Positions 172 through 58,712 of a stretch of DNA of 64,000 bases are shown one piece after another. This stretch comes from Bdellovibrionales bacterium. GTDB taxonomy: Bacteria; Bdellovibrionota; Bdellovibrionia; Bdellovibrionales; JAUICD01. Both the position numbers and the translations under genes were made by a program. The notes under the pieces are model-generated. The model was not told the origin of the DNA. It worked only from the letters and a program-made list of their open reading frames with translations, and did not search any database. Each line of letters opens with the position of its first letter. Position 1 is the stretch's first letter. The stretch lies in assembly GCA_965203275.1 (NCBI GenBank), contig OZ241865.1, positions 2,112,001-2,176,000 on the forward strand, written 5' to 3'.

Positions 172-595
172 AAATCTTTTTCCTTAACATCTTGTTAAGA
201 AACAAAAGGATCCTCCCTACTAAAAGTAAACGGACTTTTGAGGCAATGACCATTTTGCCAATGGCGTAAAAAGTGAAATAAATATCTTGTTTCCTTAACA
301 TCGTGTAAAGAGACAAGAGGATTTTTCCTACTAAAAATAAACGGATTTTTGAGGCAATCAGCCTTTGATCGACGGTGATAAGCCGTCGGGCTGATTGTCC
401 AAAAACAGCTAGAAGCTGGTTTATTTTTAGTGAGACAAATGCGGTCATTGTCCAAAAGTGGCCAGAGGCCAGTTCACTTTGAGTGAAACAGACGGCATGA
501 TGCATTTTGTTCACTTTGAGTGAAACAGACGGCATGATGCATTTTGAGTGAAAAAGACCGCTTTTAGTGAAAAGGCCCACTTTTAGGGAAACGAA
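172..595 (+). repeat. Family A structured repeat cluster 1 (nested copies plus stacked 3'-arm fragments)
   Basis: TTTCCTTAACAT...GATCCT...ACTAAAA(G/A)TAAAC...hairpin...CCAGAGG...GTGAAA modules; a full copy at about 287-436 lies between an interrupted 5' part and a 3' part. Confidence 0.9.
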
Positions 596-627
596 AGTTA
601 TATATTCTTTTATTAAAATATCTCTTC

Positions 628-1275
628 TTATAAACTTTCTTCTGCAAAATGTAAATAACTACTAGCTATGGCTACTGCTTTTTCTATAAAAGCAATGCCT
701 GTTCCTAAATAATCTTCTGCTTGGAAACAAAAGCTATAAGCTTTTGGAGCTATGAGATTCCAATTGGAAATAAATATTTGGCTTATTAAAAAACTCTTAT
801 GTTCTTTTTGAGGAATACACTTTAAAGCAGATTCTTTAGCAACCCATAAAAGAGCAACTTGTGGAGCCTCTGTAATTTCTTCCTTTTGAGAGATGCGATT
901 TGCTAAAGTAAGTTTAACTCGCAAGACTTCTTCAACATCAAGTCCTATAAGAGTTTGAGGGTCAAAGGAAACAATAAATCCTCCTAAGATTTTGCAGTGA
1001 GAGATAGAAATAGACGCTGATGGATGATATGGTTTCCCCCCAGGAGTTAAAAGCTCTTGTTTATTTTTTATTGAAATATGTTTTTCTAAATAGTTCACAA
1101 GAACTTTTCTAAGATATAGACGTTGTTGCCACGTGGGACTAGAAGGACGACTCCATGATTGGAAATAACAATAAATAGAGTTATTTGCTTGATTGAGTGT
1201 TTTAAATTTATTTTGTATTTTGATTAAATCCATTGTAATCCATTTTAATCCATTATTTTGATTCCAAATAATCAT
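628..1275 (-). CDS. 4'-phosphopantetheinyl transferase family protein
   Basis: GKP..SISH..IGLDVE..WVAKESALK motifs; the true start may be about 13 codons downstream. Confidence 0.8.
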   Translation of the reverse strand: MIIWNQNNGLKWITMDLIKIQNKFKTLNQANNSIYCYFQSWSRPSSPTWQQRLYLRKVLVNYLEKHISIKNKQELLTPGGKPYHPSASISISHCKILGGFIVSFDPQTLIGLDVEEVLRVKLTLANRISQKEEITEAPQVALLWVAKESALKCIPQKEHKSFLISQIFISNWNLIAPKAYSFCFQAEDYLGTGIAFIEKAVAIASSYLHFAEESL

Positions 1276-1525
1276 AACTTATGTAAAAAACTATATAAAA
1301 AATCCAAACCTCATGTAAACTCTTTGCTTTATTGTTTGGGTATTGACAAATGATTATTTTGAGTATAAAGTCACTTAAGTTATCATTTATTTGGCTTTTA
1401 AATCAAATAAAATGGGTGAGTATCCTTTGTTATTTTGTGAGGAGGAGGTACTTTTATGCTTTTTCTCTTATCTTTTAGCTAACATTTAGCTAAAACAGAT
1501 TGTCAAATCAGGCAGAGTCTTTCTA

Positions 1526-1571
1526 TGAGGTGTGCCATATTGAGGTGTGCCATATTGAGATGTGCCATATT
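1526..1571. repeat. 15-bp tandem repeat x3 (TGAGGTGTGCCATAT)
   Basis: Directly visible upstream of rplS. Confidence 0.85.
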
Positions 1572-4961: not shown

Positions 4962-6104
4962 ATGAAAAAATATATTTTTATCCTATTTATTGCTTTGCTT
5001 GTTTCTAGTGATTCTCTATCTATGGACCTACGGAGGAGGACTTGTGCTAAATTCCTTATGCCAAATTCAAAACAAAAAGTTATTAAAGAGTCCTTAAGTG
5101 AGAGTGAATTATTGAAGCTAAATAATAGGTTATTAAATCTTGTTTATGCCGGTGTTTATGTCGGCCGTATTAGATTGATAAAGAAATTGCTAGAGGCTGG
5201 AGCTAACGTCAATTATCAAAACGGCTATGGCAGGACGGCTTTAATGTTGGCTATTGAGAATGGCCATATAGAGGTTGTAAGGGTATTGCTAGAAAATGGA
5301 GCTAACGTCAATCTTCAAGACAAAAAAGGCAGGACGGCTTTAATATTTGCTAGCCGTGAAGGCCATACTGAAATTGTAAGGTTATTGCTAGAATATAGTG
5401 CGGACGTCAATCTTCAAGACAAAAAAGGCAGGACGGCTTTAATGTGGGCTAGCCGTGAAGGCCATACTGAAATTGTAAGGTTATTGCTAGAATATAGTGC
5501 GGACGTCAATCTTCAAGACAAAAAAGGCAGGACAGCTTTAATGTGGGCTAGCCGTGAAGGCCATACTGAAATTGTAAGGTTATTGCTAGAATATAATGCG
5601 GACGTCAATCTTCAAGACAAAAAAGGCAGGACAGCTTTAATATTTGCTATCCGTTTTGGCCTTACTGAAATTGTAAGATTATTGCTAGAAAATGGAGCTA
5701 ACGTCAATCTTCAAGACAAAAAAGGCAAGACAGCTTTAATATTTGCTAGCCGTTTTGGCCTTACTGAAATTGTAAGATTATTGCTAGAAAATGGAGCTAA
5801 CGTCAATCTTCAAGACAAAAAAGGCAGGACGGCTTTAATATTTGCTAGCCGTTTTGGCCATACTGAAATTGTAAGATTATTGCTAGAATATAGTGCGGAC
5901 GTCAATCTTCAAGACAAAAAAGGCAGGACAGCTTTAATATTTGCTAGCCGTTTTGGCCATACTGAAATTGTAAGATTATTGCTAGAGTTTAGAGCTAACG
6001 TCAATCTTCAAGAAAATGATGGCTGGACGGCTTTAATGTATGCTAGTTTGAATCGTCATATTGAAATTGAAAGACTATTAAAAGAGGCCGGAGCTACAGA
6101 ATAA
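4962..6104 (+). CDS. Secreted ankyrin-repeat protein (about 9 repeats encoded by near-identical 99-bp units)
   Basis: Signal peptide plus repeated VNLQDKKGRTAL..AS..GHTEIVRLLLE units. Confidence 0.95.
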   Translation: MKKYIFILFIALLVSSDSLSMDLRRRTCAKFLMPNSKQKVIKESLSESELLKLNNRLLNLVYAGVYVGRIRLIKKLLEAGANVNYQNGYGRTALMLAIENGHIEVVRVLLENGANVNLQDKKGRTALIFASREGHTEIVRLLLEYSADVNLQDKKGRTALMWASREGHTEIVRLLLEYSADVNLQDKKGRTALMWASREGHTEIVRLLLEYNADVNLQDKKGRTALIFAIRFGLTEIVRLLLENGANVNLQDKKGKTALIFASRFGLTEIVRLLLENGANVNLQDKKGRTALIFASRFGHTEIVRLLLEYSADVNLQDKKGRTALIFASRFGHTEIVRLLLEFRANVNLQENDGWTALMYASLNRHIEIERLLKEAGATE

Positions 6105-6183: not shown

Positions 6184-6454
6184 TTTCTTTAGGTATTTAA
6201 TTTAATCAATTAATATAGATCGAATAAAGAACAGATGACTTGAGCTTATCCTCTACAATCTGACGAATTTCTGACAAAGTATTGTCTGAAACTTGAAATG
6301 AATGACTATCTTTGGTACACATTCATAATGGCTCCTTTCTTTTTATTTTTAAAATTAATGGTTAATGAAATTTGGTTGGCTGAAATATGCCAACCAGGAG
6401 CCTTCTATCTTACATCCTCTCTAAGAAAAATTCACCGAATTATAGGACATGCTC

Positions 6455-7725
6455 CTTTTTCTCCTTAACATTTCACTCAAAATGAACTGGCCTCTGGCCA
6501 CTTTTGAGCTGGATCTTCAATTTATTTCTTAAATTTCAAAATCATTGCCCTGAGACCAGACTCTTTCCCATTCATATCATTAGCTTTTAAAAACCTTCAT
6601 CTTATTTGGCTTTGAAATTCTGTGCTTACAAATATCTCAAAAAGCGGGGTGCGATAAAGGAAATTTTTCCTTAACATTATGTAAAAAAACGAGGAGATCC
6701 TCCTTCCTAAAATTGAACAAGCTTTTGAGGGCATCAGGCAGAAAAGGCATTTTGTTTCCTTAACATGGTGTTAAGAGACAAGGAGATCCTCCTTACTAAA
6801 AGTGGTCGACAGCAAGCTTCTCTGAAGCTTGCCATGTAACAACACTAGGTGATGACCATTTTATCGACGGCGGTAGCCGTCGTGGTCATCGCCAGAAAGT
6901 AGCCAGAGGCTAGACCAAGTGAAACAGCTCCTCCAGCCTGCCCTCGCCTCCCACTCATAATATTCACGCTTTTTTGAGATTTACGCAGAATCTAAAAAGA
7001 ATAAAAAAACAAAAAAACGAACTCTTGTTTCCTTAACATTGTGTAAAGAGAGAAGAGGATTCTTCCTACTAAAAATAAACGGATTTTTGAGGCATTGCTC
7101 TTTTTAGACAGCGTAAGCTGTCAGAGCAATGCCCAAAAACAGCCAGAGGCTGGTTTATTTTTAGTGAGACAAACGCGGTCATTGCCCAAGGTGTAAGAAG
7201 GCATGTGGTCAAGAGACGAAGAGAGCGGTTAGCCTTTGATCGACGGCGGTAGCCGTCGGGCTAACTGCCCAAAAGTAGCCAGAGGCTAGTTTATTTTTAG
7301 TGAGACAAACGCGGTCATTGCCCAAGGTGTAAGAAGGAACTTTTTCCTTAACATGTGGTCAAGAGACGAAGAGATTCTTCTTCCTAAAATTGAACAAGCT
7401 TTTGAGGCGGTTAGCCTTTGATCGACGGCGGTAGCCGTCGGGCTAACTGCCCAAAAGTAGCCAGAGGCTAGTTTATTTTTAGTGAGACAAACGCGGTCAT
7501 TGCCCAAGGTGTAAGAAGGAACTTTTTCCTTAACATGTGGTCAAGAGACGAAGAGATTCTTCTTCCTAAAATTGAACAAGCTTTTGAGGCGGTTAGCCTT
7601 TGATCGACGGCGGTAGCCGTCGGGCTAACTGCCCAAAAGTAGCCAGAGGCTAGTTCAATTTTAGGGAAACAGAGGCATGATGCATTTTGAGTGCAAAAGA
7701 CGGCATGATTTATTTTGAGTGAATT
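6455..7725. repeat. Composite repeat cluster: family A copies (including a 182-bp tandem), a family B fragment and insert D
   Basis: 182-bp period at about 7215-7660; 6472-6633 is a near-identical inverted copy of 28802-28963. Confidence 0.9.
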
Positions 7726-14704: not shown

Positions 14705-17677
14705 CTAGTTTTTCTCTAACATAACTAGTCGTCTTTCTTTTAGATAAATAGCCATTGTCTCATAACCATGCGTGTCAGCTAGTTTAATAAGCTGATTTAT
14801 TTTTTCTATATCAAAAGGATCTTTGCGTATATCCTGTAAAATAGTTTTAATAGCTGGATGATAGTCTGATGCAATTTGTCTGTTAAGATTTTTATTATTA
14901 AAGCTCTCTAAAAATTTTTTTACAAGAGATGAATTATTTTTTGATAAATAATTCATAAGTGAAGATAAATGAGATTGAGCCATTCTTTTTGTAGCTCTAT
15001 TCATCTGTGTAAAATAATCTCTTAATTTTTGGGCAAGATGATCAGGACTGCTAAAAAGTTTTTGCATTTGAGAATCAATATGAGATGACTTTGTTTTATA
15101 TATAGCTGCTTGTTTTTCTAAAAGAGCCAAATGCTGTTGTTCTGTATCTGTATTTAATTCATTAGGTATAGCCATGAACATCAAATCACTATGGAGCCTT
15201 TGAGCTTCTCTTTTAGTCAAAGAAAGAGCAATCACTTGACTGATAAAATCCTTTAATTGTATGACAGCTATAGCTTTTTTTTCTAAAGTAGTAAATAAAT
15301 TAAATCTTTGTTTTAAATCATTTCCTACTTGTTGAGAGTTTGTTCTTATTTGATGTTGAGCTATTTTTTTTTCAAATAAGCTTAAATCTTTTAAGAGTTT
15401 ATCTCTTAAAAAAGTTTGATAAGCAGGTGTTTTACTGAACTGCTTTTGTTTTAATAACTGACTCATAATGTTTTTTTGTTGATCATTAAGATAATGTTCT
15501 AATAAAGCATCAGCAAATAGATTTGGGTTATGGAGTAACACACTTCGATGTTGTTGTGCAAAACGATGAGGGTTAGAAGCCTCTTGAAATAATTTTAAAG
15601 CGACTTCAAACTTCTTTTGTGTGTTTTCAGAGAGTTTTAAAAAATCTAAAGAATGTTTTGTATAATCTCTTCGAGCCAACTGAGCAAAAACAGCTAATTT
15701 AAGAGCTTGTTGAGCAGGGGTGATCTTTTGAGGTTTGACTTGTTGGGCTAGCTCATACATTGTAGGAAAGTCTAATATCAACTCTGACAAATAAAGCTTT
15801 CTGGAAAGAGCAAAGCTTTTATCTGCTGGGGATAAAGTTTTTATTTTCAATAGATGCTCTATAAATTGAAACTCATCAGATATGAGGCGAAGTTTACCTG
15901 CTAAAATAATTCTATTTTTATAATATTTAATTTTTTCATCATCACTAGCACCTGATAAATTTATACGATCAAGAGTTTGCCATGCTTGCTGAGCATTTTC
16001 AGATGCCATTTGATTCATAAGAGATACTCTATTAGCTTTAATAAAGTTTTGAGAGTCTTTTGGAAAAGCTTTTATGAATTCAAGAGATGTTTTTTCTAGC
16101 TCTTGATTATTTTGAAGTTTTGCAAATGAGTCTAAAGTCAGCAAGGCTGCTTGCATTTGAATCTTTTTATCTTTGGTAGAACCTTTTGTTTTAAGAAGAG
16201 CCACATTTTTTAAAGCTTGAGCTGCTTTTTTATAATCTTTTTCATCATAAAATAGTTTAGCATCGAGGTAAGAGACTTTAAGCCATTGGGTTTTTTGAAG
16301 ACTTGCTGTCATATAAGTTTTGTAAGCTTTTTTTAAAGCTACTTTATTTTTAGAAAGATCTGCAGCTGTGATATAATTAATTAAAATATCTTCTAAGAAA
16401 AGAGCTTCCTTTTGTTGTTGTGCTTTTGAGTTACTTTTTAAAGATGCTATTTTTTTTGCTTGTATTTGAAAGGTCAAGTCGTAGAGTTTGAGAGCAGCCT
16501 TCCATGATTTCAAGTTATGGGCAAGCTGAGCAGCTTGATATGTGATTTCTATATCATTGATAAACAATTTTAAATAATAGAGGTGAGCTTTTAGAAGATG
16601 CTCTGAGAATTTGTTGGGTTGGCTTTCTTTATACCAACGAGTAAGAGTTTGACGTGTATTATTTTTAAAATCTTGACACTTTGACCCTTTAAGGTTGCAG
16701 GTGTTATTCCAAATCTGGGTCATAGATTTTATTTCATAAATAGTAGCTTGAAATTGATTTGTTTCAAAAAAAAGCTGAAAGAGTTGAGCATGAGATTCTA
16801 ATTGTATAGTTTTATCTAATCCTTTTGATTGTAGTTCTTTCCATACCAAAATGGCTTTCTTTTTATGACCTAATCTTACAAGCTCATTGGCTAAATAGAT
16901 CAAATTATTTGTTCTTTTATTTTGGGGACTTAAGCTATAAAGTTGCTTGATCTCTTGACCTTGTGGGCTTTTTTTAGCTAAAAAAGTCGCTAGGTCGTAA
17001 GATATTTGTTCATGAAATAAGCTGGCTTGATTGTTTTTACTTTGATGGACTAATAGTTTAAAAAGATCACTTACGGCAAGGTCTATTTTGCCAAGACGGT
17101 AATTACACCAAGCTATTTTATATTTTGCTAAATTTTGATCTTCAAAATGGGCATTGATAGCTTCTAAAAAATAATCTTTAGATTTTTGAAACTGACCTTG
17201 TTTATAAAAAATCTCTCCAAGGGCTGCATAGACCTTTGCTTTAATAGCTTTTGATGTTTTTGTATTTTGTGCATTACGAATCACTTGATTATAGGCATGG
17301 ATGCCTTGTCTTTCATGGCCTAAGAGAGTATTGATATATCCTATTTGAAAGAAAATATGATCTTTTATTGAAGGGTCAACCTGATTTTTAACAGAGTGGT
17401 ATAAAGACAAAGCTCTTTTAAAATCCCCATGCCCTGCATGACACTGGCTTTTACAACCATTATTTATTTGACGAGATTCTTTTATTTTAGCTCTGTCCAC
17501 AAGAGCATCAGCTAATCTCAATGTAGAAGGTATTCTGAGAGGGTCTTGAGGTGATAAAGTTTTTAAAATATTATTAAAGCGGGTAATTAATTGATTCACA
17601 TCATCAAGAGAAGCCCATCCCACAATACAGTAACAGTAAATCAAAAATACAAGAAAATATTTAATAAAAATTTGCAC
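14705..17677 (-). CDS. Large secreted TPR protein (GltD/AgmU-like)
   Basis: TPR motifs (LGEIFYKQGQFQKS, YKIAWCNYRLG); co-oriented with exbB/exbD-like genes. Confidence 0.75.
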   Translation of the reverse strand: MQIFIKYFLVFLIYCYCIVGWASLDDVNQLITRFNNILKTLSPQDPLRIPSTLRLADALVDRAKIKESRQINNGCKSQCHAGHGDFKRALSLYHSVKNQVDPSIKDHIFFQIGYINTLLGHERQGIHAYNQVIRNAQNTKTSKAIKAKVYAALGEIFYKQGQFQKSKDYFLEAINAHFEDQNLAKYKIAWCNYRLGKIDLAVSDLFKLLVHQSKNNQASLFHEQISYDLATFLAKKSPQGQEIKQLYSLSPQNKRTNNLIYLANELVRLGHKKKAILVWKELQSKGLDKTIQLESHAQLFQLFFETNQFQATIYEIKSMTQIWNNTCNLKGSKCQDFKNNTRQTLTRWYKESQPNKFSEHLLKAHLYYLKLFINDIEITYQAAQLAHNLKSWKAALKLYDLTFQIQAKKIASLKSNSKAQQQKEALFLEDILINYITAADLSKNKVALKKAYKTYMTASLQKTQWLKVSYLDAKLFYDEKDYKKAAQALKNVALLKTKGSTKDKKIQMQAALLTLDSFAKLQNNQELEKTSLEFIKAFPKDSQNFIKANRVSLMNQMASENAQQAWQTLDRINLSGASDDEKIKYYKNRIILAGKLRLISDEFQFIEHLLKIKTLSPADKSFALSRKLYLSELILDFPTMYELAQQVKPQKITPAQQALKLAVFAQLARRDYTKHSLDFLKLSENTQKKFEVALKLFQEASNPHRFAQQHRSVLLHNPNLFADALLEHYLNDQQKNIMSQLLKQKQFSKTPAYQTFLRDKLLKDLSLFEKKIAQHQIRTNSQQVGNDLKQRFNLFTTLEKKAIAVIQLKDFISQVIALSLTKREAQRLHSDLMFMAIPNELNTDTEQQHLALLEKQAAIYKTKSSHIDSQMQKLFSSPDHLAQKLRDYFTQMNRATKRMAQSHLSSLMNYLSKNNSSLVKKFLESFNNKNLNRQIASDYHPAIKTILQDIRKDPFDIEKINQLIKLADTHGYETMAIYLKERRLVMLEKN

Positions 17678-17689
17678 TTTAACTTTCTC

Positions 17690-18184
17690 CTATTGAGGGG
17701 ATAGCTGGTCTGTTAAAACAACAAATTGCATGAGATGATATCCTGCTTGATGGCCTGCTAAAACAATATGATTAAGGTATTTGTATTGCGTTTTTTTGTC
17801 TGCTTCTAAAATAAGAGTCGATTCCTCTTCATTTAGGTTATTATTTTTTTTATGCTCTAATAATTTTTCAATAAGATTGTTTGAAAGTACTTGCTGTTTT
17901 TCAATAAAATATTGACCATTTTTAAATTGGACCGATATGTGGTGAGGGTTTAGCTTTGTTCCATTTTGTGCAGAAGGCAGTTGGATACCTTGAGTAGGAA
18001 TATCCCCTGAAACATTCATTAAAAGATAAACTACAAGGATAGAAAAAACATCAATCAAGGAGGTCAATATAAGAGGTGCTGTGAATGTTTTATTTTTTTT
18101 ACATAAATTATTATTTTTGATAAAGGTCATATTTTGAAGAGAGCTTTGAGAGGATGTATTTTGTAAGATGCTGTTTTTAATCAT
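17690..18184 (-). CDS. ExbD/TolR family protein (AglS/AglQ-like)
   Basis: LTSLIDVFSILVVYLL TM with conserved Asp; ADKKTQY. Confidence 0.85.
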   Translation of the reverse strand: MIKNSILQNTSSQSSLQNMTFIKNNNLCKKNKTFTAPLILTSLIDVFSILVVYLLMNVSGDIPTQGIQLPSAQNGTKLNPHHISVQFKNGQYFIEKQQVLSNNLIEKLLEHKKNNNLNEEESTLILEADKKTQYKYLNHIVLAGHQAGYHLMQFVVLTDQLSPQ

Positions 18185-18196
18185 TTTTTCTCCTTT

Positions 18197-18676
18197 TTAA
18201 ATAGGAAGAACTCCTAGTGAGTAAAGCCCTGCTTTTTTAATACAGTCCATAAGATCTATGACATCTTGATATGGAGCTTGAGGATATGGAATGACAATAG
18301 CCCGGGATAAATAGGGTATTTGCTCCATCAACGCTTCTAAATGCATTGCAATATTTTGATTATCGATTTGTGGAATACCATTTTGATTTGTCCACCCTGG
18401 GATCAAAAAATCGTGCCATTTTATATCAATATCCGGTGGAGGGCTTTGTAATGAAAGAGTCACTTGTCCATGGGTAGACATTTTAGCTAAAAGGGTTGTA
18501 TTTGTTGCTTGATCTGTTGTGTTCTGAGAAGATTGTGTTTCTATAGATGGTTGAACTTTTATAGAGGCCATTTGTGCCTGAAAGGCTGTAAGAAGTAAAA
18601 AACAAATACACACAGCGAGCATGCCGATAAATGAAATAATATTGAGGTCAAAGTCTAATGATTTTTTTGTTTTCAA
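18197..18676 (-). CDS. ExbD/TolR family protein; conserved TM Asp replaced by Gly
   Basis: DLNIISFIGMLAVCICFLLLTA; PYQDVIDLMD. Confidence 0.8.
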   Translation of the reverse strand: MKTKKSLDFDLNIISFIGMLAVCICFLLLTAFQAQMASIKVQPSIETQSSQNTTDQATNTTLLAKMSTHGQVTLSLQSPPPDIDIKWHDFLIPGWTNQNGIPQIDNQNIAMHLEALMEQIPYLSRAIVIPYPQAPYQDVIDLMDCIKKAGLYSLGVLPI

Positions 18677-19386
18677 GAGAAACCTCTTTTGACACTTGTA
18701 GGTAAATTTTCATCTGTGGAAGCAGGTTCGTAAGTATAACTAAGCCAGTTAAAAATTTTCAATGCACCTTGGTTAAGATCTTCGGAGAGAGTATTGGTGC
18801 GATTTTGTAAAATAGCGAACATAATCAGTGCCGGGATAGCCATAATCAAGCCATAAGCTGTGGTGTTCATAGCTTCTGAAATGCCTTGTGAAAGTAGTGT
18901 GGCTTTTTCTTCAGGGTTAGATATGCTGACAGCAGAAAAGGCTTTGATCATACCTACAATAGTACCTAAAAGTCCTGCTAATGTTCCTACATTACCTAGC
19001 ATAGATAAATAACCTGTTCTTTTTTCAATATGAGCTTGTTCTTCTAATAGAACTTCGTCCATTTTACCTTGGATTTCATTTTGGCCACCAGAATCTCTTG
19101 CAACTGTTGTTCCAGCAACAATAGCTCTAGCAATAGGATTTTCAAATCCTAATTTTTTAGCTTTTTCTAAAACTTTGTCTAAGTGGCCTTTGCGGATATC
19201 TTTTTCAAATATAAGGGCTATGTTTTTCTGAGTGAGGTTACGTTTGATATAGAGGACCCAAAGACGATCTATAATAATGATCACAGATATGATTTGAATG
19301 AAAAAAATAAACCACATCCAAAACCCACCTTGATGGAATTTTTCAGCAATATTATTGAATAAATTTAACAGGTCAAGTGATCTCAT
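18673..19386 (-). CDS. MotA/TolQ/ExbB proton channel (AglR-like)
   Basis: GLLGTIVGMIKAF..GISEAMNTTAYGL. Confidence 0.92.
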   Translation of the reverse strand: MRSLDLLNLFNNIAEKFHQGGFWMWFIFFIQIISVIIIIDRLWVLYIKRNLTQKNIALIFEKDIRKGHLDKVLEKAKKLGFENPIARAIVAGTTVARDSGGQNEIQGKMDEVLLEEQAHIEKRTGYLSMLGNVGTLAGLLGTIVGMIKAFSAVSISNPEEKATLLSQGISEAMNTTAYGLIMAIPALIMFAILQNRTNTLSEDLNQGALKIFNWLSYTYEPASTDENLPTSVKRGFS

Positions 19387-21359: not shown

Positions 21360-21371
21360 TCGGTCTATTTC

Positions 21372-21780
21372 ACTGGTTCACTATTTCACTAAAAGTAAAC
21401 CAGCCTTTGTTTCACTAAAAGTGGTCTGACCTCTGGTCACTTTCTGGCGATGACCACGATGGCTTTCGCCATCGATAAAATGGTCATTTGGTTCACTCAA
21501 AGTGAACTGGCCTCTGGCCACTTTTGGACGATGACCGCAAAGGCTTTCGCCTTTGACAAAATGGTCATCGTCTCAAAAGCCTGTTCACTTTGAGTAGGAA
21601 GGATCCTTTCCTCTTTTGACACGATGTTAAGGAAAAAGTTCCTTCTTACACCTTGAGTGTTGCCTGCAAAGGCTTTCGCCTTTGACAAAATGGTCATCGC
21701 CTCAAAAGCCTGTTCACTTTGAGTAGGGAGGATCTCTTCGTCTCTTAACACCATGTTAAGGAAAAATTCCTTCTTACACC
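21372..21780 (-). repeat. Family A cluster
   Basis: Reverse-orientation copies with CGATGGC/CAAAGGC apical hairpins. Confidence 0.9.
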
Positions 21781-24600: not shown

Positions 24601-24644
24601 TTATTTCTTAACATCCTGTTAAAGACTGTTAAAGACAAATTTCC

Positions 24645-25312
24645 TTCTGATGCCCGGTTGCCTGATCCTGGATCCTTTTGTCTTTTTACATGATGTTAAG
24701 GAAACAAGTCAATTGGTTTTTCACTCAAAATGAGCCACACCTCTGGTTCACTAAAAGTAAACTAGCCTCTGGCTACTTTTGGACAATGACCGCAATGGCT
24801 TTCGCCATTGGCAAAATGGTCATTGTCTCAAAAGTCCGTTTACTTTTAGTAGGGAAGGATCTCCTCATTTCTTAACACAATGTTAAGGAAACAAGATGTT
24901 TATTTCACTTTGATATTTCGCCATTGGCAAAATGGTCATTGTCTCAAAAGTCCGTTTACTTTTAGTAGGGAGGATCTCCTCATTTCTTAACACAATGTTA
25001 AGGAAACAAGATGTTTATTTCACTTTGATATTTCGCCATTGGCAAAATGGTCATTGTCTCAAAAGTCCGTTTACTTTTAGTAGGGAAGGATCTCCTCATT
25101 TCTTAACACCATGTTAAGGAAAAAGTTCAGTTTTAGGACCTGATGCCGGGTTGCCTGATTGTTTCCCTAAAATTGAACTAGCCTCTGGCTACTTTTGGGT
25201 AGCCAGCCCGACGACTTTCGTCGTCGATCAAAGGCTGGCTACCTCAAAAGCTTGTTCAATTTTAGGAAGGAGGATCCCTTCGTTTCTTGACAACATGTTA
25301 AGGAAAAAGTTT
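24645..25312 (-). repeat. Family A cluster with about 115-bp tandem half-copies
   Basis: ccattggcaaaatggtcattgtctc at 24805, 24921 and 25036; full copy at about 25160-25305. Confidence 0.9.
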
Positions 25313-25316
25313 TTTT

Positions 25317-28280: not shown

Positions 28281-28384
28281 TAAATCCTTCCAATGCCTTA
28301 TTATGCACAGATTACAAAAGATTGCAAACAAAAACAACCCACATTGTAAAGGTTATAGGGTACTTTGTAATTTTTACATAGTCT

Positions 28385-29100
28385 ATTTCCCTAAAATTGA
28401 ACTGGCCTCTAGCCACTTTTGGGCAGTTAGCCCGACGGCTGTCGCCGTCGATCAAAGGCTAAGCTGTTTCACTAAAAGTGGTCTAGCCTCTGGCTACTTT
28501 CTGGCAATGACCGCAATGGCTTTCGCCATTGGCAAAATGGTCATCGCCTAGAAAGCCTGACCACTTTTAGTAGGAAGGATCTCCTTGCTTTTTAACACCA
28601 TGTTAAGGAAAAAGTTCCTTTATTGCATTGAGCTTGCTTTCCAAAAACATTTTAGAGGTATATCTTGTTTCCCTAACATGGTGTAGAGGAATAAAAGGAT
28701 CCTCCTCTACTCAAAATGAACAAGCTTTTGAGGTAGCCAGCCTTTTACGACGGCGGTAGCCGTCGGGCTGATTGCCCATTACCATTCGCATCCAGATTTT
28801 TTATTTGTAAGCACAGAATTTCAAAGCCAAATAAGATGAAGGGTTGTAAAAGCTAATGATATAAATGGGAAAGAGTCTGGTCTCAGGGCAATGATTTTGA
28901 AATTTAAGAAATAAATTGAAGATCCAGCTCAAAAGTGGCCAGAGGCCAGTTCATTTTGAGTGAAAAAAATTGAGGACTTCGGAAGGCTCACACTGCCCTA
29001 TCCTCAAATAAAAATAAAATGGAAAAGCAGAATCGAAGGGTGGTGGGTGAGGTTAGGGAAGTTCCTTCTGACCAGATCCCAGATCCCGGATCCCAGATCA
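28385..29100. repeat. Composite cluster: family A (minus then plus, one copy carrying the ~150-bp insert D), family B right half, heptamers
   Basis: ACTAAAAGTGGTC/GACCACTTTTAGT copy; ACTCAAAATGAAC...GTTCATTTTGAGT copy expanded by an insert; 28969-29060 matches 35600-35692. Confidence 0.88.
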
Positions 29101-35466: not shown

Positions 35467-35481
35467 GGAAGTATTTTTTTT

Positions 35482-35692: not shown

Positions 35693-35694
35693 TT

Positions 35695-36700
35695 GTTTCA
35701 CTCAAAGTGAACGGACTTTTTAGGTAGCCAGCCTTGATGAAGGAACTTTTTCCTTAACATTTCACTCAAAATGAACCACACCTCTGGTGTGTTTTTTGGT
35801 GTTGCCTGCAAAGGCTTACGCCTTTGACAAAATAGGCAACACCTAAAAAATCTGTTCATTTTGAGTAGGGAGGATCCACTCGTCTCTTTACACGATGTTA
35901 AGGAAAAAGAGTTTCATTTGTAAAGTCGCTTGCTCCTGAGGTAATAAAAGAAATTTTCCCTAACATGGTGTAAAGGAATAAAAGGATCCTCTTTTACTCA
36001 AAATAAATGAATTTTCTAGGCAGTTAGCCTTTGATCGACGGCGAAAGCCGTCGGGCTAACCATTAGAAGGATGTTTTCCTTAACATGTAGTCAAAAAACG
36101 AAGAGATCCTCCCTACTCAAAGTGAACAGGCTTTTGAGACAATGACCATTTTGTCAAAGGCGAAAGCCTTTGCGGTCATTGTCCAAAAGTGGCCAGAGGC
36201 CAGTTCACTTTGAGTGAAAAAGAGGCTGGTTTATTTTTAGTGAACCTTGATGAAGGAACTTTTTCCTTAACATGGTGTTAAGAAACGAAGAGATCCTCCC
36301 TACTCAAAGTGAACAGGCTTTTGAGACAATGACCATTTTGTCCTTAACATGGTGTTAAGAAACGAAAGATCCTCCCTACTCAAAGTGAACAGGCTTTTGA
36401 GACAATGACCATTTTGTCAAAGGCGAAAGCCTTTGCGGTCATTGTCCAAAAGTGGCCAGAGGCCAGTTCACTTTGAGTGAAAAAGAGGCTGGTTTATTTT
36501 TAGTGAACCTTGATGAAGGAACTTTTTCCTTAACATGGTGTTAAGAAACGAAGAGATCCTCCCTACTCAAAGTGAACAGGCTTTTGAGACAATGACCATT
36601 TTGTCAAAGGCGAAAGCCTTTGCGGTCATTGTCCAAAAGTGGCCAGAGGCCAGTTCACTTTGAGTGAAAAAGAGGCATGATGCATTTTGAGTGAAAAAGA
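35695..36700. repeat. Family A cluster with a ~186-bp tandem
   Basis: ccttaacatg starts at 36078, 36265, 36342 and 36528. Confidence 0.92.
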
Positions 36701-39149: not shown

Positions 39150-39953
39150 ATGCATAGAAAAAAGAAAGTTTATTTATCGTTAGTATTATTTGGTTTGTCT
39201 TGTGTGGCCTTCGGGTTTAACAACTGTAAGAAAAGTAAAGTAGCAAATCAGACATCAAGCTCCACAATGACACACACAAGCCCATCACCAACTCCAACAC
39301 CAGCCTCGGATCCAATACCATTATTTCCAGCTCCAACATACGCTTGCAATCAAGATTATGGTATGAGTTTATATAGAGCTGTTTCAAATGGTGATATAGA
39401 GACTGTAAAGGATTTGCTAGAGACCGGAGCCGATCCTAACAAAGGACATGATCAGGTTTTAACGGCCTCTATTAAACATATAAATATTTTCAAGTTATTG
39501 CTAAAAACTTGTATTGATGTTGATAAAAAAGATCATCAAGGCAGTACGGCTTTAATATGGGCTAGTGGACTAAAGGCAAACATTGAAGCTGTAAAGTTAT
39601 TGCTAGCGGCCGGAGCGGACGTCGATGTTCAAGATACCTTTGGCTATACGGCTTTAATAATGGCTAGTGATAAAGAAAAGCTTGAAATTGTCAGGCTGTT
39701 GCTAGAGGCCGATGCCAATACAGACTTTAAATCGGCTAACGTAGGCTATACGGCCTTAATGTATGCTATTCAAAGAGGTGATATAGAGATTGTAGAGCTA
39801 TTGCTAGAGGCCGGTGCCGATCTCCATATTCAAAATAACTCTGGCCGGACAGCTTTATCAATGGCTAAATCGAGAGTTAGTTTAGGTGGAGATTATACCG
39901 GTATTGTAAGGCTATTAAAGTACAAAATAAACCCGCCGAGGCTTACAGATTAA
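39150..39953 (+). CDS. Ankyrin-repeat lipoprotein-like protein
   Basis: GFNNC leader, S/T/P linker, about 5 ankyrin repeats. Confidence 0.92.
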   Translation: MHRKKKVYLSLVLFGLSCVAFGFNNCKKSKVANQTSSSTMTHTSPSPTPTPASDPIPLFPAPTYACNQDYGMSLYRAVSNGDIETVKDLLETGADPNKGHDQVLTASIKHINIFKLLLKTCIDVDKKDHQGSTALIWASGLKANIEAVKLLLAAGADVDVQDTFGYTALIMASDKEKLEIVRLLLEADANTDFKSANVGYTALMYAIQRGDIEIVELLLEAGADLHIQNNSGRTALSMAKSRVSLGGDYTGIVRLLKYKINPPRLTD

Positions 39954-39972
39954 GACCAATTATATTTATCCT

Positions 39973-39999
39973 TAAGTAAGTCAAAAGCCCTGCCGATAG
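39973..39999 (+). promoter_or_regulatory. sigma28 promoter
   Basis: TAAG-N15-GCCGATAG. Confidence 0.7.
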
Positions 40000-40040
40000 A
40001 GTATTTAGATAGCCATTTACTATCTAAAGGTCGGTACAAA

Positions 40041-40733
40041 ATTCCTAGAAAACAGAAAGCTTATTTATCGTTATTATTGTTTGTTTTATCTTGTTTGGCA
40101 TTCGGGTTTAACAATTGTTATAAAGATAAGTTAGACAAGGTCGAAAGCCAGACATCTAGCTCTAAGATGACACACACAAACCCATCACCAATTCAAAGTT
40201 CAACACCGACCATAAACCCATCACCAAATCCCGAAGCAAATCAATCGCTAATCGAAGCCGTATGGGAAGGGAATATCAGTAAAGTAAGAGATGCCTTAAA
40301 TAATGGAGCGAACATTAATTTTCGTTGCAATGATGGCTATGCCAGTACGGCTTTAATGGTTGCTGTTAGAATGGGTGATATAGAGATTGTAGAGCTATTG
40401 CTAGAGGCCGGAGCCAACGTCAATGCTCAAGACATTAATGGCAAGACGGCTTTAATGTGGACATCTTCAATAGCCTTTACTTATTATTTAACATATTGGC
40501 CAGCTATAACGAAAATGAATCTTTGTACTGGTCTTCCTTGCAATGATACTCAGGGACCAATAAGAGAAAATGAACAAAACGTGGAACGTCTTAATATTGC
40601 AAAGTTATTGCTAGAGGCCGGAGCGGATGTCAATCTTCAAGACAACACTGGCAAGACGGCTTTATATTATGCTAGATCAGAAGATCAAGAGGATATTGTA
40701 AGGCTATTAAAAGAGTCCGGAGCTACAGAATAA
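40041..40733 (+). CDS. Ankyrin-repeat lipoprotein-like protein (paralog; the aligned start codon is ATT)
   Basis: ATTCCTAGAAAACAGAAAG aligns with ATGCATAGAAAAAAGAAAG of the upstream paralog; GFNNC leader. Confidence 0.85.
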   Translation: MPRKQKAYLSLLLFVLSCLAFGFNNCYKDKLDKVESQTSSSKMTHTNPSPIQSSTPTINPSPNPEANQSLIEAVWEGNISKVRDALNNGANINFRCNDGYASTALMVAVRMGDIEIVELLLEAGANVNAQDINGKTALMWTSSIAFTYYLTYWPAITKMNLCTGLPCNDTQGPIRENEQNVERLNIAKLLLEAGADVNLQDNTGKTALYYARSEDQEDIVRLLKESGATE

Positions 40734-46788: not shown

Positions 46789-46824
46789 TAATAAAAAAAT
46801 TAAGTAAAATAAGATAGTTAAGGA

Positions 46825-47174
46825 GAACTTTTTCCTTAACATGATGTAAAGAAACGAAGGGATCCTCCATACTCAAAGTGGTCAGGCTTTTGAGGAGATG
46901 AGCATTTTATCGACGGCGAGAAAATAAACATCTTGTTTCCTTAACATGGTGTTAAGAAATGAGGACATCCTTCTTCCTAAAATTGAACAGGCTTTTGAGG
47001 GCATCAGGCAGAAAAGGCATTTTGTTTCCTTAACATGGTGTTAAGAGACGAGAGGATCCTCCCCTACTAAAAGTAAACGGACTTTTGAGGTAGCCAGCCT
47101 TTGATCGACGGCGGTAGCCGTCGGGCTGGCTACCCAAAAGTGACCAGAGGTCAGTTTACTTTTAGTGAAACAGA
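46825..47174 (+). repeat. Family A cluster; clean reference copy at 47021-47174
   Basis: All helices intact. Confidence 0.92.
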
Positions 47175-50379: not shown

Positions 50380-50467
50380 ATTGTCATCTCACATTGTTAT
50401 TTTACTTGTGTTATTAAGAGATAAGTCTATTTATCAGTCATACTTTAGTCAAGGCTTTTGTTTCCTC

Positions 50468-51352
50468 TGTTTCACTAAAAGTGGTCTGTTTCCCTAAAAG
50501 TAAACTGACCTCTGTTTCACTAAAAGTAAACTGACCTCTGGTCACTTTTGGGCGATGACCACGACGACTGTCGTCGTCGATAAAATGGTCATCACCTCAA
50601 AAGTCCGTTTACTTTTAGTAGGGGAGGATCCTCTCGTCTCTTAACACAATGTTAAGGGTTTGTCTCACTAAAAGTAAACTGACCTCTGGTCACTTTTGGG
50701 CGATGACCACGACGACTGTCGTCGTCGATAAAATGGTCATCACCTCAAAAGTCCGTTTACTTTTAGTAGGGGAGGATCCTCTCGTCTCTTAACACAATGT
50801 TAAGGGTTTGTCTCACTAAAAGTAAACTGACCTCTGGTCACTTTTGGGCGATGACCACGACGACTGTCGTCGTCGATAAAATGGTCATCACCTCAAAAGT
50901 CCGTTTACTTTTAGTAGGGGAGGATCCTCTCGTCTCTTAACACGATGTTAAGGGTTTGTCTCACTAAAAGTAAACTGACCTCTGGTCACTTTTGGTCATC
51001 ACCTCAAAAGTCCGTTTACTTTTAGTAGGGGAGGATCCTCTCGTCTCTTAACACGATGTTAAGGGTTTGTCTCACTAAAAGTAAACTGACCTCTGGTCAC
51101 TTTTGGGCGATCGATAAAATGGTCATCACCTCAAAAGTCCGTTTACTTTTAGTAGGGGAGGATCCTCTCGTCTCTTAACACGATGTTAAGGGTTTGTCTC
51201 ACTAAAAGTAAACTGACCTCTGGTCACTTTTGGGCGATGACCACGACGACTGTCGTCGTCGATAAAATGGTCATCACCTCAAAAGTCCGTTTACTTTTAG
51301 TAGGGAGGATCCCTTCGTTTCTTTACTCCATGTTAAGGAAAAAGTTCCTTCA
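50468..51352 (-). repeat. Family A tandem array, six units (148, 148, 148, 111, 127 bp plus a terminal copy)
   Basis: taaaagtaaactgacc at 50521, 50669, 50817, 50965, 51076 and 51203. Confidence 0.95.
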
Positions 51353-51582
51353 TCAAGGCTGGCAACCTCATAAAACTTCAAATAAAAAAAGAGACCACAA
51401 GGCCCCCTTTTGTCTAAATACATAGAAAAGATTTAGTTTTCATATCTACAAAGATAGACATTGTCTTTAAGTGTGTCTAAAAGAGACAATAAAAAATATA
51501 AAAATTTTATAAAACCCACAATAACCCCACTTTTAAAGGTTAAACTTTGATAGCTCGCATCATTTATTGACCCACACACCAC

Positions 51583-55548: not shown

Positions 55549-57096
55549 ATGACTAAAATAATGACTAAAAAACCAAAAAGTAAAAGCATGTCACATCAAC
55601 AAAGGACATACTTGCTACTTATTTGTCTTACATTTTTGTTTATTGGATTCCAAAATTGTGGTCGAGATAACGCTCTAGAGAGTGATTCAGAGAATCCATC
55701 CACTCCTACAGCGTCGCCTTCACCCACACCGGCAAAAATTAAAAAAATATATACAGGTATTCAACATAACTGTTCTTTAGATGATGCAGGGCAGGTAAAA
55801 TGCTGGGGACTCAATGATAGTGGTCAGTTAGGTCAAGGTCATATAACAGATATTGGTACTTCAAGCGATCACATAACAGATTTAGATGATATCAATTTAG
55901 ATTCCAAACATAAAAGTGTGTCTCTTGCTCTGGGGGATAAATATAGCTGTAGCCTTTTAGATAACGATCATGTTAAGTGCTGGGGGCTTAATAATAAAGG
56001 TCAGTTAGGTTATAACAACACAGAAGATTTAGGTGATGAACCTAATGAAATGGGATCTCACCTGGCCATTGTAGGTGGTACGAATTTCAAAGTTAGATCG
56101 ATTGCATCAGGATATAGCCATACCTGTGTGATTATGAAAAAGTCTGGCCAAACCAATGCAGGACCAGTCAAATGCTGGGGAGAAAATAACTATGGTCAGT
56201 TGGGTCAAGGCAATACTAACAATATTAAGACTCCAAGTGACCATGAAAATATCGATCTTGGACATGATAGTATAGCTCTTGCTACTGGTCATAAACACAC
56301 TTGTGCTTTGCTCGATAATGACTGTGTGAAATGCTGGGGAGGCAATGATTTTGGTCAGTTAGGTTACGAAGACCTTGATAGTCGGGGTGATGCATCAAAT
56401 GAAATGGGGTCTAACTTAGACCCTGTAGGAGGTCAAGAGTTTAAAGTTAAGGCTATTGTAGCAGGACATAGCCATACCTGTGTGATCAGAAAGAACTTTG
56501 GTTCAGTGACTGATGTAGAAGGTAAAGTGCAATGTTGGGGGAATAACAACAAGGGGCAATTAGGTCAAGGTAATATAGACACTCTAGGTGATGATGCCGA
56601 TGAAATTACAGATTTACAGTTTGTTGATTTAGGTTCAAATCGTAAAGCTAAGTCTATTTTTGCAGGGGAAAATCATACCTGTGCAAGGTTAGATAATGAT
56701 CATTTAAAATGCTGGGGAGAAAATAAATTTGGTCAGCTAGGTCAAGGTTCTACCAATGACATTGGTAACGAAGCTAATGAAATGGGTGATGAATTGATGA
56801 GCGTCCCTATTGCTGCTAGTCGTACTCTTGCTAGTGTACCATCTGATCAAGTAGATCATACAATATCTGTTGGTGGTCATAATACTTGTTTTATCTTAGA
56901 TGATTTCAAAGCAAGATGCTGGGGTGATAATTTTTCTGGTCAGTTAGGTCAAAATCATGCATGTTCTCTAGGCAACGGCAAAGGCTATTTTGCAGAAGGG
57001 GCAGATGCTCAAGCTCAATGTGACCCTCCTAGCAATACTCCAGAAGATAAAGTGGTTGGACACACTGTCGACAAAATCAATCCTATAGATCTCTAA
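55549..57096 (+). CDS. RCC1/BLIP-II beta-propeller repeat lipoprotein
   Basis: Seven HTC...KCWG.N..GQLG repeats; FQNC leader. Confidence 0.92.
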   Translation: MTKIMTKKPKSKSMSHQQRTYLLLICLTFLFIGFQNCGRDNALESDSENPSTPTASPSPTPAKIKKIYTGIQHNCSLDDAGQVKCWGLNDSGQLGQGHITDIGTSSDHITDLDDINLDSKHKSVSLALGDKYSCSLLDNDHVKCWGLNNKGQLGYNNTEDLGDEPNEMGSHLAIVGGTNFKVRSIASGYSHTCVIMKKSGQTNAGPVKCWGENNYGQLGQGNTNNIKTPSDHENIDLGHDSIALATGHKHTCALLDNDCVKCWGGNDFGQLGYEDLDSRGDASNEMGSNLDPVGGQEFKVKAIVAGHSHTCVIRKNFGSVTDVEGKVQCWGNNNKGQLGQGNIDTLGDDADEITDLQFVDLGSNRKAKSIFAGENHTCARLDNDHLKCWGENKFGQLGQGSTNDIGNEANEMGDELMSVPIAASRTLASVPSDQVDHTISVGGHNTCFILDDFKARCWGDNFSGQLGQNHACSLGNGKGYFAEGADAQAQCDPPSNTPEDKVVGHTVDKINPIDL

Positions 57097-57312
57097 TTTT
57101 GGTGACTTTTAATTTTGAATAAGATAGCAAATTAAAAATTGCTTGGAATTAAAGTGGATTTTTTAATTTGGTATGCTATTTTTAACTTGATAAGCTATGC
57201 TATAGATGTTAGTTTGTGAAAATTAAAATAAACAGAATTACAGAATTGAATTACAGAATTTAAGATGAAGATATCAAAGCCTAAGAAACCCTAGGAAACT
57301 CAGAGAAACATT

Positions 57313-58572
57313 ATGCCATCTTTAGATTTTAAAGGCAAATCTGAAATTTATTCTCATCATTTGACAGTACCTTGTTATCCTTTAAAAATAGATAGCAAAA
57401 AGTCTTTTGGTTTTCAAAATGGTACATCACAGTGGACCCCTTCCCTCAACGACAATTTGATCATTCATGGTGATAATCTTTATGCTCTTAAGTCTCTTTT
57501 GCCTCAATATGCAGGTCGGATCAAATGCATTTACATTGACCCACCTTATAATACAGGGAATGAAAAATGGAAATACAATGACAATGTCAACTCTCCTTTA
57601 ATGAAGACATGGCTTGGTCAAGTTGTGGATTTAGACGATCTTGAAAAGCATGATAAATGGCTTTGCATGATGTGGCCTCGGTTGCAGTTGCTCAAAGAAC
57701 TTCTTGCTGAAAATGGTGTTATTTTTGTTTCTATTGATGATCATGAGCAATGCCGGTTACAAATGATGATGAATGAAATTTTTGGAGAAAAAAATTGCAT
57801 CACAACCCTTATCAAGCCTACAAAGATTGGCGGAGGGAATAACTCAAAACACATAGTAAAGAGTCACGAATATATTTTGGTTTATGCTCAAAGCAAGTCA
57901 CAATTAATGCCTCTGTTTGTCAAACATCAAAAAGATTATCTTAAAAGATATAGAGAAAGAGATAAAAAAGGTAGGTTCTTTTGGGATACACTTAATCGTC
58001 CTGGCTTGAGAAATGCTCATTATAGTATCACAGCTCCTGATGGCACTGCTATTGAAGGGTCTTGGATATGGTCCAAAAAGCGAGTAGAAAAAGCTATCCA
58101 ATTAGGTGAAATTAGAATAGAAAAGATCAATCGTAAATGGAGTGTGCATTTTAAACAAAGACTTAATATAAAGGGTAAAAAATTAACTAGCCTGTTAAGT
58201 CGAGAATTAGTTGGAGGGACAATAGAAGGAAGCCGTGAAATGAAAGATATATTTCATAATGCATATATATTTCCTTACCCTAAATCATCTCATTTAATTA
58301 AGTTTCTTTTAGAGAGTTTAAACTGTCAAGATGCCATTGTTTTAGACTCTTTTGCTGGCACAGGTACAACAGCTCATGCTGTTTTGCAGTTGAATCAAGA
58401 AGACGGAGGCCAGCGTAAATTTATTCTTGTTGAATGTGAAGATTATGCTCATACAATCACAGCTGAACGGGTACGTAAAGTGATCAAAGGTATTCCTCAA
58501 TCTCAAAATAAGAAGCTTCAAAAAAAAATGAAAGGTTCTTTTACTTATTGTCAATTAGATTTTAATACTTAA
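57313..58572 (+). CDS. Type III R-M Mod-like methyltransferase lacking the C-terminal domain
   Basis: GDNL.AL, YIDPPYNTG, FVSIDD.E, FPYPK, DSFAGTGTT; ends about 110 aa earlier than its paralog. Confidence 0.9.
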   Translation: MPSLDFKGKSEIYSHHLTVPCYPLKIDSKKSFGFQNGTSQWTPSLNDNLIIHGDNLYALKSLLPQYAGRIKCIYIDPPYNTGNEKWKYNDNVNSPLMKTWLGQVVDLDDLEKHDKWLCMMWPRLQLLKELLAENGVIFVSIDDHEQCRLQMMMNEIFGEKNCITTLIKPTKIGGGNNSKHIVKSHEYILVYAQSKSQLMPLFVKHQKDYLKRYRERDKKGRFFWDTLNRPGLRNAHYSITAPDGTAIEGSWIWSKKRVEKAIQLGEIRIEKINRKWSVHFKQRLNIKGKKLTSLLSRELVGGTIEGSREMKDIFHNAYIFPYPKSSHLIKFLLESLNCQDAIVLDSFAGTGTTAHAVLQLNQEDGGQRKFILVECEDYAHTITAERVRKVIKGIPQSQNKKLQKKMKGSFTYCQLDFNT

Positions 58573-58621
58573 ACACAATGTTTATACCGACAATCAAGCA
58601 AGCTACCCTAGGTTTAGAAGG

Positions 58622-58712
58622 AGCTTTTTCTTTAACATTTCACTCAAAATGCATCATGCCTCTGGCATGTTTTTGGACAATGACCGCGTTTGTTTCACTA
58701 AAAATAAACAAA
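58622..58712 (-). repeat. Family A fragments
   Basis: ctttaacat|ttcactcaaaatgcatcatgcctctggcatg...tgaccgcg...ttcactaaaaataaac. Confidence 0.8.

Follow-up and report, generated by a model that had tools for sequence, protein, structure and literature searches.

Recurrent self-nesting junctions of a non-coding hairpin repeat in a Bdellovibrionales genome and their possible origin

If copies of a repeat are broken again and again at the same base, was that base cut anew each time, or was the join made once and then copied? The question is raised by a stretch of 64,000 nucleotides (nt) from a Bdellovibrionales bacterium (positions 2,112,001 to 2,176,000 of contig OZ241865.1; hereafter the window), in which copies of family A, a 155-nt non-coding hairpin repeat, lie inserted into one another at about a dozen recurring positions. 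A preliminary description of this DNA distinguished four recurrent junction types (i to iv) and attributed them to an enzyme that nicks at hairpin loops and takes existing copies as targets, the composites being then copied as units. Our genome-wide analysis supports the use of existing copies as targets as well as the copying of composites as units. However, the recurring junctions do not demonstrate an enzyme cutting hairpin loops. The explanation we prefer, to which we give a probability of about 0.5, is that most registers go back to one or a few founder joins and were spread by break-primed DNA synthesis at short homologies. On the question of how REP-like repeats spread and form mosaics, this genome offers more than 1100 scorable junctions and two passive tracers by which founder events can be separated from recurrent ones: a recurrent breakpoint need not mean a recurrent cut.

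Family A and its nested copies

The genome to which the window belongs (G000; 2.57 Mb on one contig, 90% complete by markers) was compared with a relative of the same genus that has many copies (G001) and with a relative that has few (G004); among 301 genomes of the order, family A was found in these three only. Positions in the repeat refer to a model copy, window 36515-36672 (model positions 1-158), and the profile was built from 568 full-length G000 copies. There are 1671 pieces in G000 (nhmmer), 7 of them inside open reading frames (ORFs) of at least 200 aa, and by the cluster parse described below the repeat takes up 179 kb, i.e. 7.0% of the genome. Like repeats of the REP/BIME type, it is intergenic, palindromic, present in high copy number and gathered in mosaic clusters. 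A pattern scan of genome contigs gave, among the matches listed, 17 of 18 loci from Bdellovibrionales bacterium, the single other locus being a weak and partial match; in viral contigs the pattern matched nowhere.

On the + strand, the predicted fold consists of a head hairpin (loop 22-24) followed by a three-way junction, whose two loops are an apical C-GNNA-G at 98-101 and a small AGA at 131-133; its z-score is -9.9 as DNA and -6.8 as RNA. Pairs of the G.T kind outnumber A.C pairs on that strand by 756:158. C-GNNA-G is a loop of DNA hairpins, whereas the corresponding RNA loop is GNRA; given that the third apical-loop base is a pyrimidine in about one third of 523 distinct copies, a DNA hairpin fits better. 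In intact copies the two strands of the outer stem, although distant, are more tightly linked to each other (normalized mutual information 0.73) than is an outer strand to its neighbour (0.53), as either central replacement tracts or selection on pairing would produce. A conserved CTAC at model 49-52 reads GTAG on the - strand. An Rfam scan of the window returned no family above its gathering score for family A and matched only one tRNA.

We parsed all 494 clusters with the profile free to jump between any positions and strands, retaining segments that score at least 20. This gave 2155 segments, while 60 kb of background gave 11. Among 1308 intact 3' ends, 722 abut another family A piece and 586 are free; at the 5' side, 452 of 1175 ends abut another piece. 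The genome-wide catalogue of breakpoints is far from random at the level of copies: the 670 internal 3' joins fall into 37 registers, five of which hold 444 joins and twelve 608, and ten classes make up 192 of 384 internal 5' ends. Most joins (571) are between pieces on the same strand, with 99 on opposite strands.

Nesting can be judged from 152 full copies that have a 3'-truncated copy upstream and an internal piece downstream. The host stretch missing between the two flanking pieces is 0-20 nt in 89 cases (random pairing would give 30% in this class), 21-45 nt in 28 and more than 45 nt in 6, with a median of 10.5 nt; in the 29 others the host halves overlap, 10 of them by 2-16 nt. Nesting of family A copies inside older copies is thus real. 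The window provides an example at 169-491, where junctions of types i and iii turn out to be the two ends of one nested copy: host 1-101, an inner full copy, then host 108-158. Genome-wide, the upstream piece of type iii full copies ends at 95-101 in 11 of 14 cases.

Insertion leaves no regular target-site duplication: flanks match over 4.75 nt, against 4.60 nt in shuffled pairs (591 distinct copies). Pairs of filled and empty paralogues (27 candidates, several with sizes inflated by paralogue divergence) mostly show short deletions, and one insertion has a duplication of about 10 nt. Family A also lacks the combination of terminal inverted repeats and target duplication that characterizes MITEs (miniature inverted-repeat transposable elements). 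Contigs of other strains break at the repeats and gave no clean empty site; one is 26 nt shorter over window 17273-21433, a difference equal in length to a stacked tail at 21381-21406.

Founder joins and recurrent events

All 14 junctions named in the preliminary description exist in the window, each with its motif. Type i, in which copies broken at model 101 (window 269, 24916, 25031 and 46921) continue into AAATAAAYATCTTGTTTCCTTAAC, has this motif at 276(+), 24905(-), 25020(-) and 46922(+). Type ii, a head joined to an inverted 3' end, is found at 6463, 35752 and 58630; type iii, the GTGARAC tail junction, at 430, 7164, 7300, 7482 (+) and 58698 (-); and the type iv composite at 6722 and 46992. 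With lengths of 19-40 nt and 10-108 copies genome-wide, these motifs cannot be due to chance. The description of them needs some correction. Type i is not one junction but three, distinguished by their linkers (AAAGTG at 269, TATCAAAGTG at 24916/25031 and a direct join at 46921). The junctions at 7164, 7300 and 7482 belong to a local tandem repeat of period 182, as do those at 24905 and 25020 to one of period 115. In type ii, the remainder of the cut host lies beyond the inverted copy in only 4 of 94 cases, and the type iv pair has about 130 nt in common with a few mismatches, then diverges. The two commonest same-strand classes had been missed: GTGAAAC/AGAGG into the small loop (hereafter the CAGA site), the largest class with 7 joins in the window and 178 in the genome, and head-to-tail joins at 13/14 (5 and 86, respectively).

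The four types look like founder joins. At 20 of 22 type iii loci the donor is a single allele, and at 68 of 74 type ii loci it belongs to one group of related alleles, while types i and iv carry fixed linkers; this runs against repeated independent nicking as the origin of each. The type iv linker is the flank of a copy lying in a heptamer array (6 such copies) and occurs as 7 exact copies in hosts at position 75; the type i linker has 44 occurrences, 2 of them in heptamer arrays, and is mostly joined at 95/96 or 101. Copies in heptamer arrays are therefore the likely source of both linkers. More generally, the donor allele predicts the insertion site (Cramer's V 0.45, 485 loci). In 860 kb (29%) of G001, types i to iv had no match with two mismatches allowed. 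As to the heptamers themselves, GGATCCC-type arrays occur in the window at 21785-21841, 25328-25447, 28244-28279 and 35400-35473, and by a crude motif test 295 of 723 free 5' ends have heptamer-like motifs on their upstream side, against only 38 of 586 free 3' ends with such motifs downstream.

A founder origin would also be expected if each type had arisen once and had then been carried along by segmental duplication of larger blocks, an outcome that the preliminary description had named as fatal to its model. Fixed linkers, local tandem copies and the failure to see types i to iv in the sister genome all point that way. But the longest stretch shared per locus has a median of 88-177 nt and exceeds 400 nt at 2 loci only, from which we conclude that spread was not by such duplication; moreover, the founder joins recur in differing alleles of the host, and identity on the host side between loci of types i, iii and iv has a median of only 3-10 nt. 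As a general account of the junctions segmental duplication is excluded, and we regard it as exceedingly improbable that it spread each type from a single event. One half of the objection thus stands, founder origin, while the spread was probably by transfer of short tracts. It is likely that most recurring junctions arose once and were then copied into other hosts by short-homology repair.

The CAGA site is different. Across its 13-nt invariant join there are 48 combinations of donor and host alleles, which also speaks against segmental duplication. It is the main nested join in G001 (17 of 42), and matches number 14 in the 860 kb of G001 and 1 in G004. The tail shares the allele of the inner copy itself in only 4 of 108 cases, so that local duplication is not the origin. 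This site, which coincides with a 3-4-nt match between family A's own end and its small loop, is recurrent and used in three species.

Are the target sites hairpin loops? Loops and junction intervals were set by hand for this comparison, the consensus fold having missed the head hairpin. Counted by copies, 347 of the 646 joins of the 17 larger 3' classes (54%) are at loops, and the two largest 3' classes correspond to the small loop 131-133 and the head loop 22-24. Counted by distinct 3' target sites, only 3 of 12 are at loops (expected 1.6, P=0.20), as are 6 of 32 5' classes (expected 4.7). Of 40 end-pair classes, 34 have a replaced stretch that touches a loop (expected 17), as do 9 of 15 (expected 5.5) when the CAGA site is left out. 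Stems are often cut into by family A joins. Loops may therefore start many events, and nicking at loops, as first proposed, agrees with the two major classes but not with most of the distinct sites. Orphan heads (model 17-30), which often lie between heptamer arrays, end mostly at 22 (94), 28 (62), 25 (21) and 23 (19).

Two tracers allow transfer to be followed. The first is element D, an unstructured, non-coding 153-nt unit with precise ends that inserts without duplication. All 15 full-length D sites in G000 are at model 121/122 of family A, within a stem, with no base lost or gained and in varied host alleles. In G001, about 20 copies lie in heptamer arms, family A heads and elsewhere, nearly all after CA or TA. 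A single founder that was passed from host to host is the simplest account of D's one target in G000, although a target-specific insertion is possible. Nine D copies form a head-to-tail array at G000 467087-468463. A guide segment in D was considered and rejected, as the part that could pair with the G000 target reads the same in G001 copies inserted elsewhere; lacking a covarying guide, and with 0 matches to the IS110 family (PF02371) in G000 and G001, D does not qualify as an IS110/bridge-RNA element. An apparently circularly permuted family A copy at G000 2552323 proved to be two hosts of D. In G004 and G001 (L009 4601-5003, L005 2135-2290), many family A copies have an additional small hairpin module, placed either at the AGA loop or close to position 64; G001 copies of D contain this module too.

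The second tracer is a pair of PDDEXK_2 genes, only 74% identical, that the same family A composite interrupts at the same base. About 36 nt are identical before the insertion and about 10 after it, and the inner arm has been exchanged on both strands. This pattern resembles copying into a homologous position, as in homing by break repair, where diverged alleles come to carry one insertion at the corresponding base together with short flanks transferred alongside. In PDDEXK_2 (Rpn-like) genes at G000 908240, 893166, 2025604, 1707806 and 1587697, a family A composite lies just before an internal GGAGG...ATG and splits off the C-terminal part; an internal start for a small antitoxin belongs to this gene family, and this may be one.

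Possible mechanisms and candidate enzymes

Boundaries at genomic targets were set against the modal paralogue, which replaced a best-paralogue version that overstated microhomology. The 3' end is sharp, GTGAAACA(R)AC: boundaries range from 153 to ~162, with a peak after position 160 (22 of 110 targets), where the modal join is blunt, and a second group at 156-157. In the 28 boundaries at or before 158 the target has CA in 7, against a background of 5.3%. The 5' boundary, in contrast, is spread from -19 to ~+12 and carries foreign bases, so that the repeat has one fixed end and one variable, flank-capturing end, as do IS91/Helitron elements. The 5' ends share no dinucleotide except AA in A-rich flanks, unlike the precise ends of IS200/IS605 elements, and a rule placing this boundary after YA was rejected on the same data. 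Some joins read C/T and many do not (inspection only, without statistics). We saw no replichore or strand bias (157/139 and 173/171) and no sense bias between co-oriented genes (127/117).

According to our preferred explanation, a copy that has been broken or nicked, in many cases close to one of its hairpin loops, would prime synthesis on another copy. When the template is a composite its junction would be copied in, and the captured flanks would thereby direct further copies to that site. Junctions and genomic sites of a new kind would seldom arise, the 3' end being joined bluntly or via 2-4 matching bases (CA/CAG); we propose that such matches are the reason why the CAGA loop was hit independently in three species.

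Several points weigh against this explanation, which was drawn from junctions in assembled contigs. MutS is present in G000, and transfers with 3-6 shared bases on the junction side are hard to attribute to ordinary RecA recombination. Of 98 nested cases in which the two halves of the host could be compared, only 37 show matching halves (558 of 674 in intact copies, 14% at random), which requires later reshuffling. A very sharp 3' end combined with 532 distinct free 3' flanks calls for an end-defining activity beyond repair. The same-strand bias would also be expected from a strand-specific HUH enzyme, and selection for pairing could equally account for the linkage of the arms.

For the nuclease, the best candidates, weak ones, are the Rpn-like PD-(D/E)XK genes, of which G000 has 30 (16 PF04754 and 14 PF12784): all 14 PF12784 genes lie within 250 nt of family A, against 182 of 627 ORFs of similar length. 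This link is missing in G004 and weak in G001, which again counts against our explanation. Three G001 stretches gave one copy in each of two, and relatives without family A have such genes too (16 PF04754 in G003, 14 PF12784 in G022). These genes may be mere landing places. Rpn/YhgA-like nucleases are reported, in excerpts of PMC5350276, to promote RecA-independent recombination, RpnA leaving priming ends usable for template switching.

Chiefly because repair alone leaves the sharp end unexplained, we keep another reading, possible though doubtful: a strand-specific HUH-like transposase, unrecognised or supplied earlier, would nick the folded + strand at set positions, as first suggested, and place copies in them, and the variable junctions would come from trimming after strand transfer. 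It would agree with the DNA-type loops and the G.T excess on the + strand, with the fixed 3' end, the absence of duplication, the same-strand nesting and the head-to-tail arrays, with the location of the two biggest 3' classes at loops, and with element D, which shares targets with family A and has precise ends; TnpA-REP is reported to build mosaic arrays likewise (excerpts of PMC3333891). On the other hand, both boundaries vary as described, 9 of the 12 target sites do not lie in hairpin loops, and which site is used depends on the donor allele and its captured linker. Nor did we find the enzyme: Y1 transposase (PF01797) has 0 matches in G000, G003 and G004, and the one Y1 gene of G001 is a free-standing IS200-type copy with no family A copy within 1.5 kb. 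Y2 (PF04986) has 0 matches in G000, but also 0 in all 14 control genomes.

A further possibility, quite improbable in our judgement, dispenses with a nuclease: replication would stall at the hairpins, the nascent strand would switch template at short matches and would occasionally land at a new place. SbcD was not found in G000, so that hairpins may persist, and the CA/CAG microhomology of one 3' join class, the local tandem arrays and the in-register, same-strand joins fit such switching. The lack of replichore or strand bias does not, and the sharp 3' end with its modal blunt join would be left unexplained.

One could also think of an RNA route: reverse transcription, at nicks, of a transcript whose 3' end is fixed, accompanied by truncation at the 5' side, capture of 5' flank and jumps between templates. 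The ends, the microhomology and the target deletions do resemble target-primed reverse transcription, the RNA fold is stable, and four-helix-bundle genes (an Avd-like family) occur in all three repeat-carrying genomes. We nevertheless hold it very unlikely: reverse transcriptase (RVT_1, PF00078) has 0 matches in G000, G003 and G004, the three reverse transcriptases of G001, two of them group II intron-like, are without a homologue in G000, where tblastn with those of G001 and G002 gave nothing, sense bias is lacking, and the loops are GNNA, not GNRA. The four-helix-bundle genes (PF05635), found with heptamer arms at 14 loci in G000 (window 1-166 being one), were rejected as partner; within the family their occurrence follows that of the repeat, but G021 and G025, both without family A, show an expansion of these genes too. 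The repeat lies within 160 nt downstream of all 14 copies in G000 and at none of the G004 copies inspected.

GIY-YIG and TnpB zinc finger matches in G000 are confined to one ORF each (653 and 1365 aa, respectively), and there are 7 HNH matches. Two tyrosine recombinases (307 and 187 aa) were discarded, being absent from G004, which carries family A, as were IS256-like and IS1634-like elements as movers, whose ends are unlike those of family A, IS256 moreover making 8-nt duplications. Fifteen multi-copy proteins compared with Pfam revealed no mobility enzyme beyond Mutator, DDE_1, resolvase and PDDEXK_2. The IS256-like element (G000 432218-433617) has seven near-identical copies (99.9-100%) and one at 96%, with 8-nt duplications; one of its copies sits inside a family A apical hairpin.

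The boldest reading, and an unlikely one, is that family A is a new kind of mobile DNA in which captured terminal bases, a few to a few dozen from the last target, serve as a heritable address by which an unrecognised enzyme, possibly Rpn-like, homes to sites that match and exchanges entire hairpin arms among copies; homing would include the 74%-identical gene pair, and element D would use the same machinery with precise ends. In any case, inserts pass between alleles and diverged paralogues on very short flanking identity despite MutS. If an enzyme does this on purpose, its activity would be a flank-directed insertion for which our searches turned up no parallel; if repair does it, ectopic conversion has built 7% of a small genome here, a clear example from nature.

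The window and comparison with known systems

The features of the window are collected in the table below.

Table. Family A clusters and associated elements in the window
Position	Strand	Feature	Basis
1..109	+	3' end of PF05635 four-helix-bundle gene, then heptamer arm (~126-166); separate multi-copy cassette, landing place of family A	
169..269	+	Host left half (model 1-101), broken in apical GNNA loop, type i	parse
270..438	+	Captured 5' linker and inner full-length copy (model 1-158), type iii tail at end	parse
441..592	+	Host right half (model 108-158, 441-491), then four stacked decaying 3' ends (509-592)	parse
6215..6454	+	Right-end fragment (240 nt, 95%) of active IS256-like element, abutting type ii head	
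6455..6506	both	Type ii: head (to model 22, +) joined to inverted 3' end (model 154-120, -)	
6505..6654	-	Element D without its first 7 nt, inserted at model 121 of inverted copy	
6656..6927	+	Composite of type iv: host 1-75, linker derived from heptamers (6731-6751), pieces of inner copy	
7024..7723	+	182-nt unit amplified locally (full copy with type iii tail, model 107-122 and GGTGTAAG linker); CAGA-site tail follows	
21381..21774	-	Cluster: host 1-111, full copy, pieces 77-158 and 133-158	parse
24607..25316	-	Cluster: tandem pair of 1-101 hosts (type i, ATATCAAAG linker), full copy, CAGA-site tail	
28383..28621	-	Full copy, tail resuming at model 79	parse
28660..28968	+	Host split at model 121/122 by D; zero bases lost or duplicated	
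28779..28931	+	Element D, 153 nt, unstructured second mobile unit, precise ends	
35700..36699	both	Cluster: type ii (35739-35915), host 10-115 with inner copy and CAGA tail, model copy 36515-36672	
46821..47173	+	Host 1-101, joined directly (type i); host 1-75 carrying type iv linker; full copy	
50467..51370	-	148-nt units arrayed head to tail, each 3' end meeting model 14; stacked CAGA tails	
58617..58723	both	Head of type ii, inverted model 154-107, junction of type iii	

A third multi-copy intergenic unit (window 35431-35699 and 28968-29059; about 120 BLAST pieces genome-wide) forms a long hairpin with a G-rich end and is often target and flank donor for family A. At 57313-63402, two N6/N4 methylases flank a type III-like restriction helicase, and the small composite at 58617-58723 separates the helicase from the first methylase. 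Genes for ankyrin repeats, with units of 99 nt (4962-6104 and 39150-40733), have many paralogues in G000. The tRNA is at 32208-32294 (-), with 52.8 bits in Rfam. Strains related to G000 occur in sequencing runs labelled sponge metagenome.

In the literature searched, most subscription journals being outside its scope, we found no account of family A or of flank-directed self-nesting. Several known systems share some of its traits. In intron homing and in gene conversion by break repair, related alleles receive a copy of an insertion at the equivalent position, along with short flanking stretches. The insertion of family A at the same base of related genes, with short co-transferred flanks, is alike; however, it uses many registers instead of one, the flank shared on one side is only 3-6 nt, and for a site-specific endonuclease travelling with the repeat we found no candidate. 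IS91/Helitron elements have one fixed end, one variable end that captures flanks, and head-to-tail arrays. With these and with IS200/IS605 (excerpts of PMC3333891) family A has in common the fixed and the variable end, the head-to-tail arrays and the lack of duplication, but it has no tetra- or pentanucleotide target rule, its fixed end is imprecise, and no transposase was found.

Repeats are known as insertion targets (excerpts of PMC1525189 and PMC3184786). Insertion sequences that target REP, such as ISPpu10 and ISPa11, resemble element D in using a repeat family as fixed-position target (excerpts of PMC1525189), and one IS256-like copy does sit in a family A host. In contrast to such elements, family A is mostly its own target, no IS110 transposase was found in G000 or G001, and D encodes no protein. 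Rpn nucleases are described as non-specific in the excerpts of PMC5350276, unlike the recurring registers seen here, and in the literature searched they have no link to repeats.

The closest likeness is with REP/BIME and TnpA-REP (RAYT), where, in the excerpts of PMC3333891, hundreds of intergenic single-strand hairpin units form mosaic clusters and are amplified in tandem, without terminal inverted repeats or target duplication. The differences are equally plain: family A has a 155-nt branched fold instead of a 20-40-nt hairpin (same source), no Y1 gene accompanies it in G000, its junctions follow no C/T rule by inspection, and its copies nest with deletions of ~10 nt at sites whose choice follows the donor's captured flank. 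By the tests described above, family A does not belong to the REP-RAYT, MITE, IS200/605 or retroelement families; it works like a BIME-type mosaic repeat with homing-like spread.

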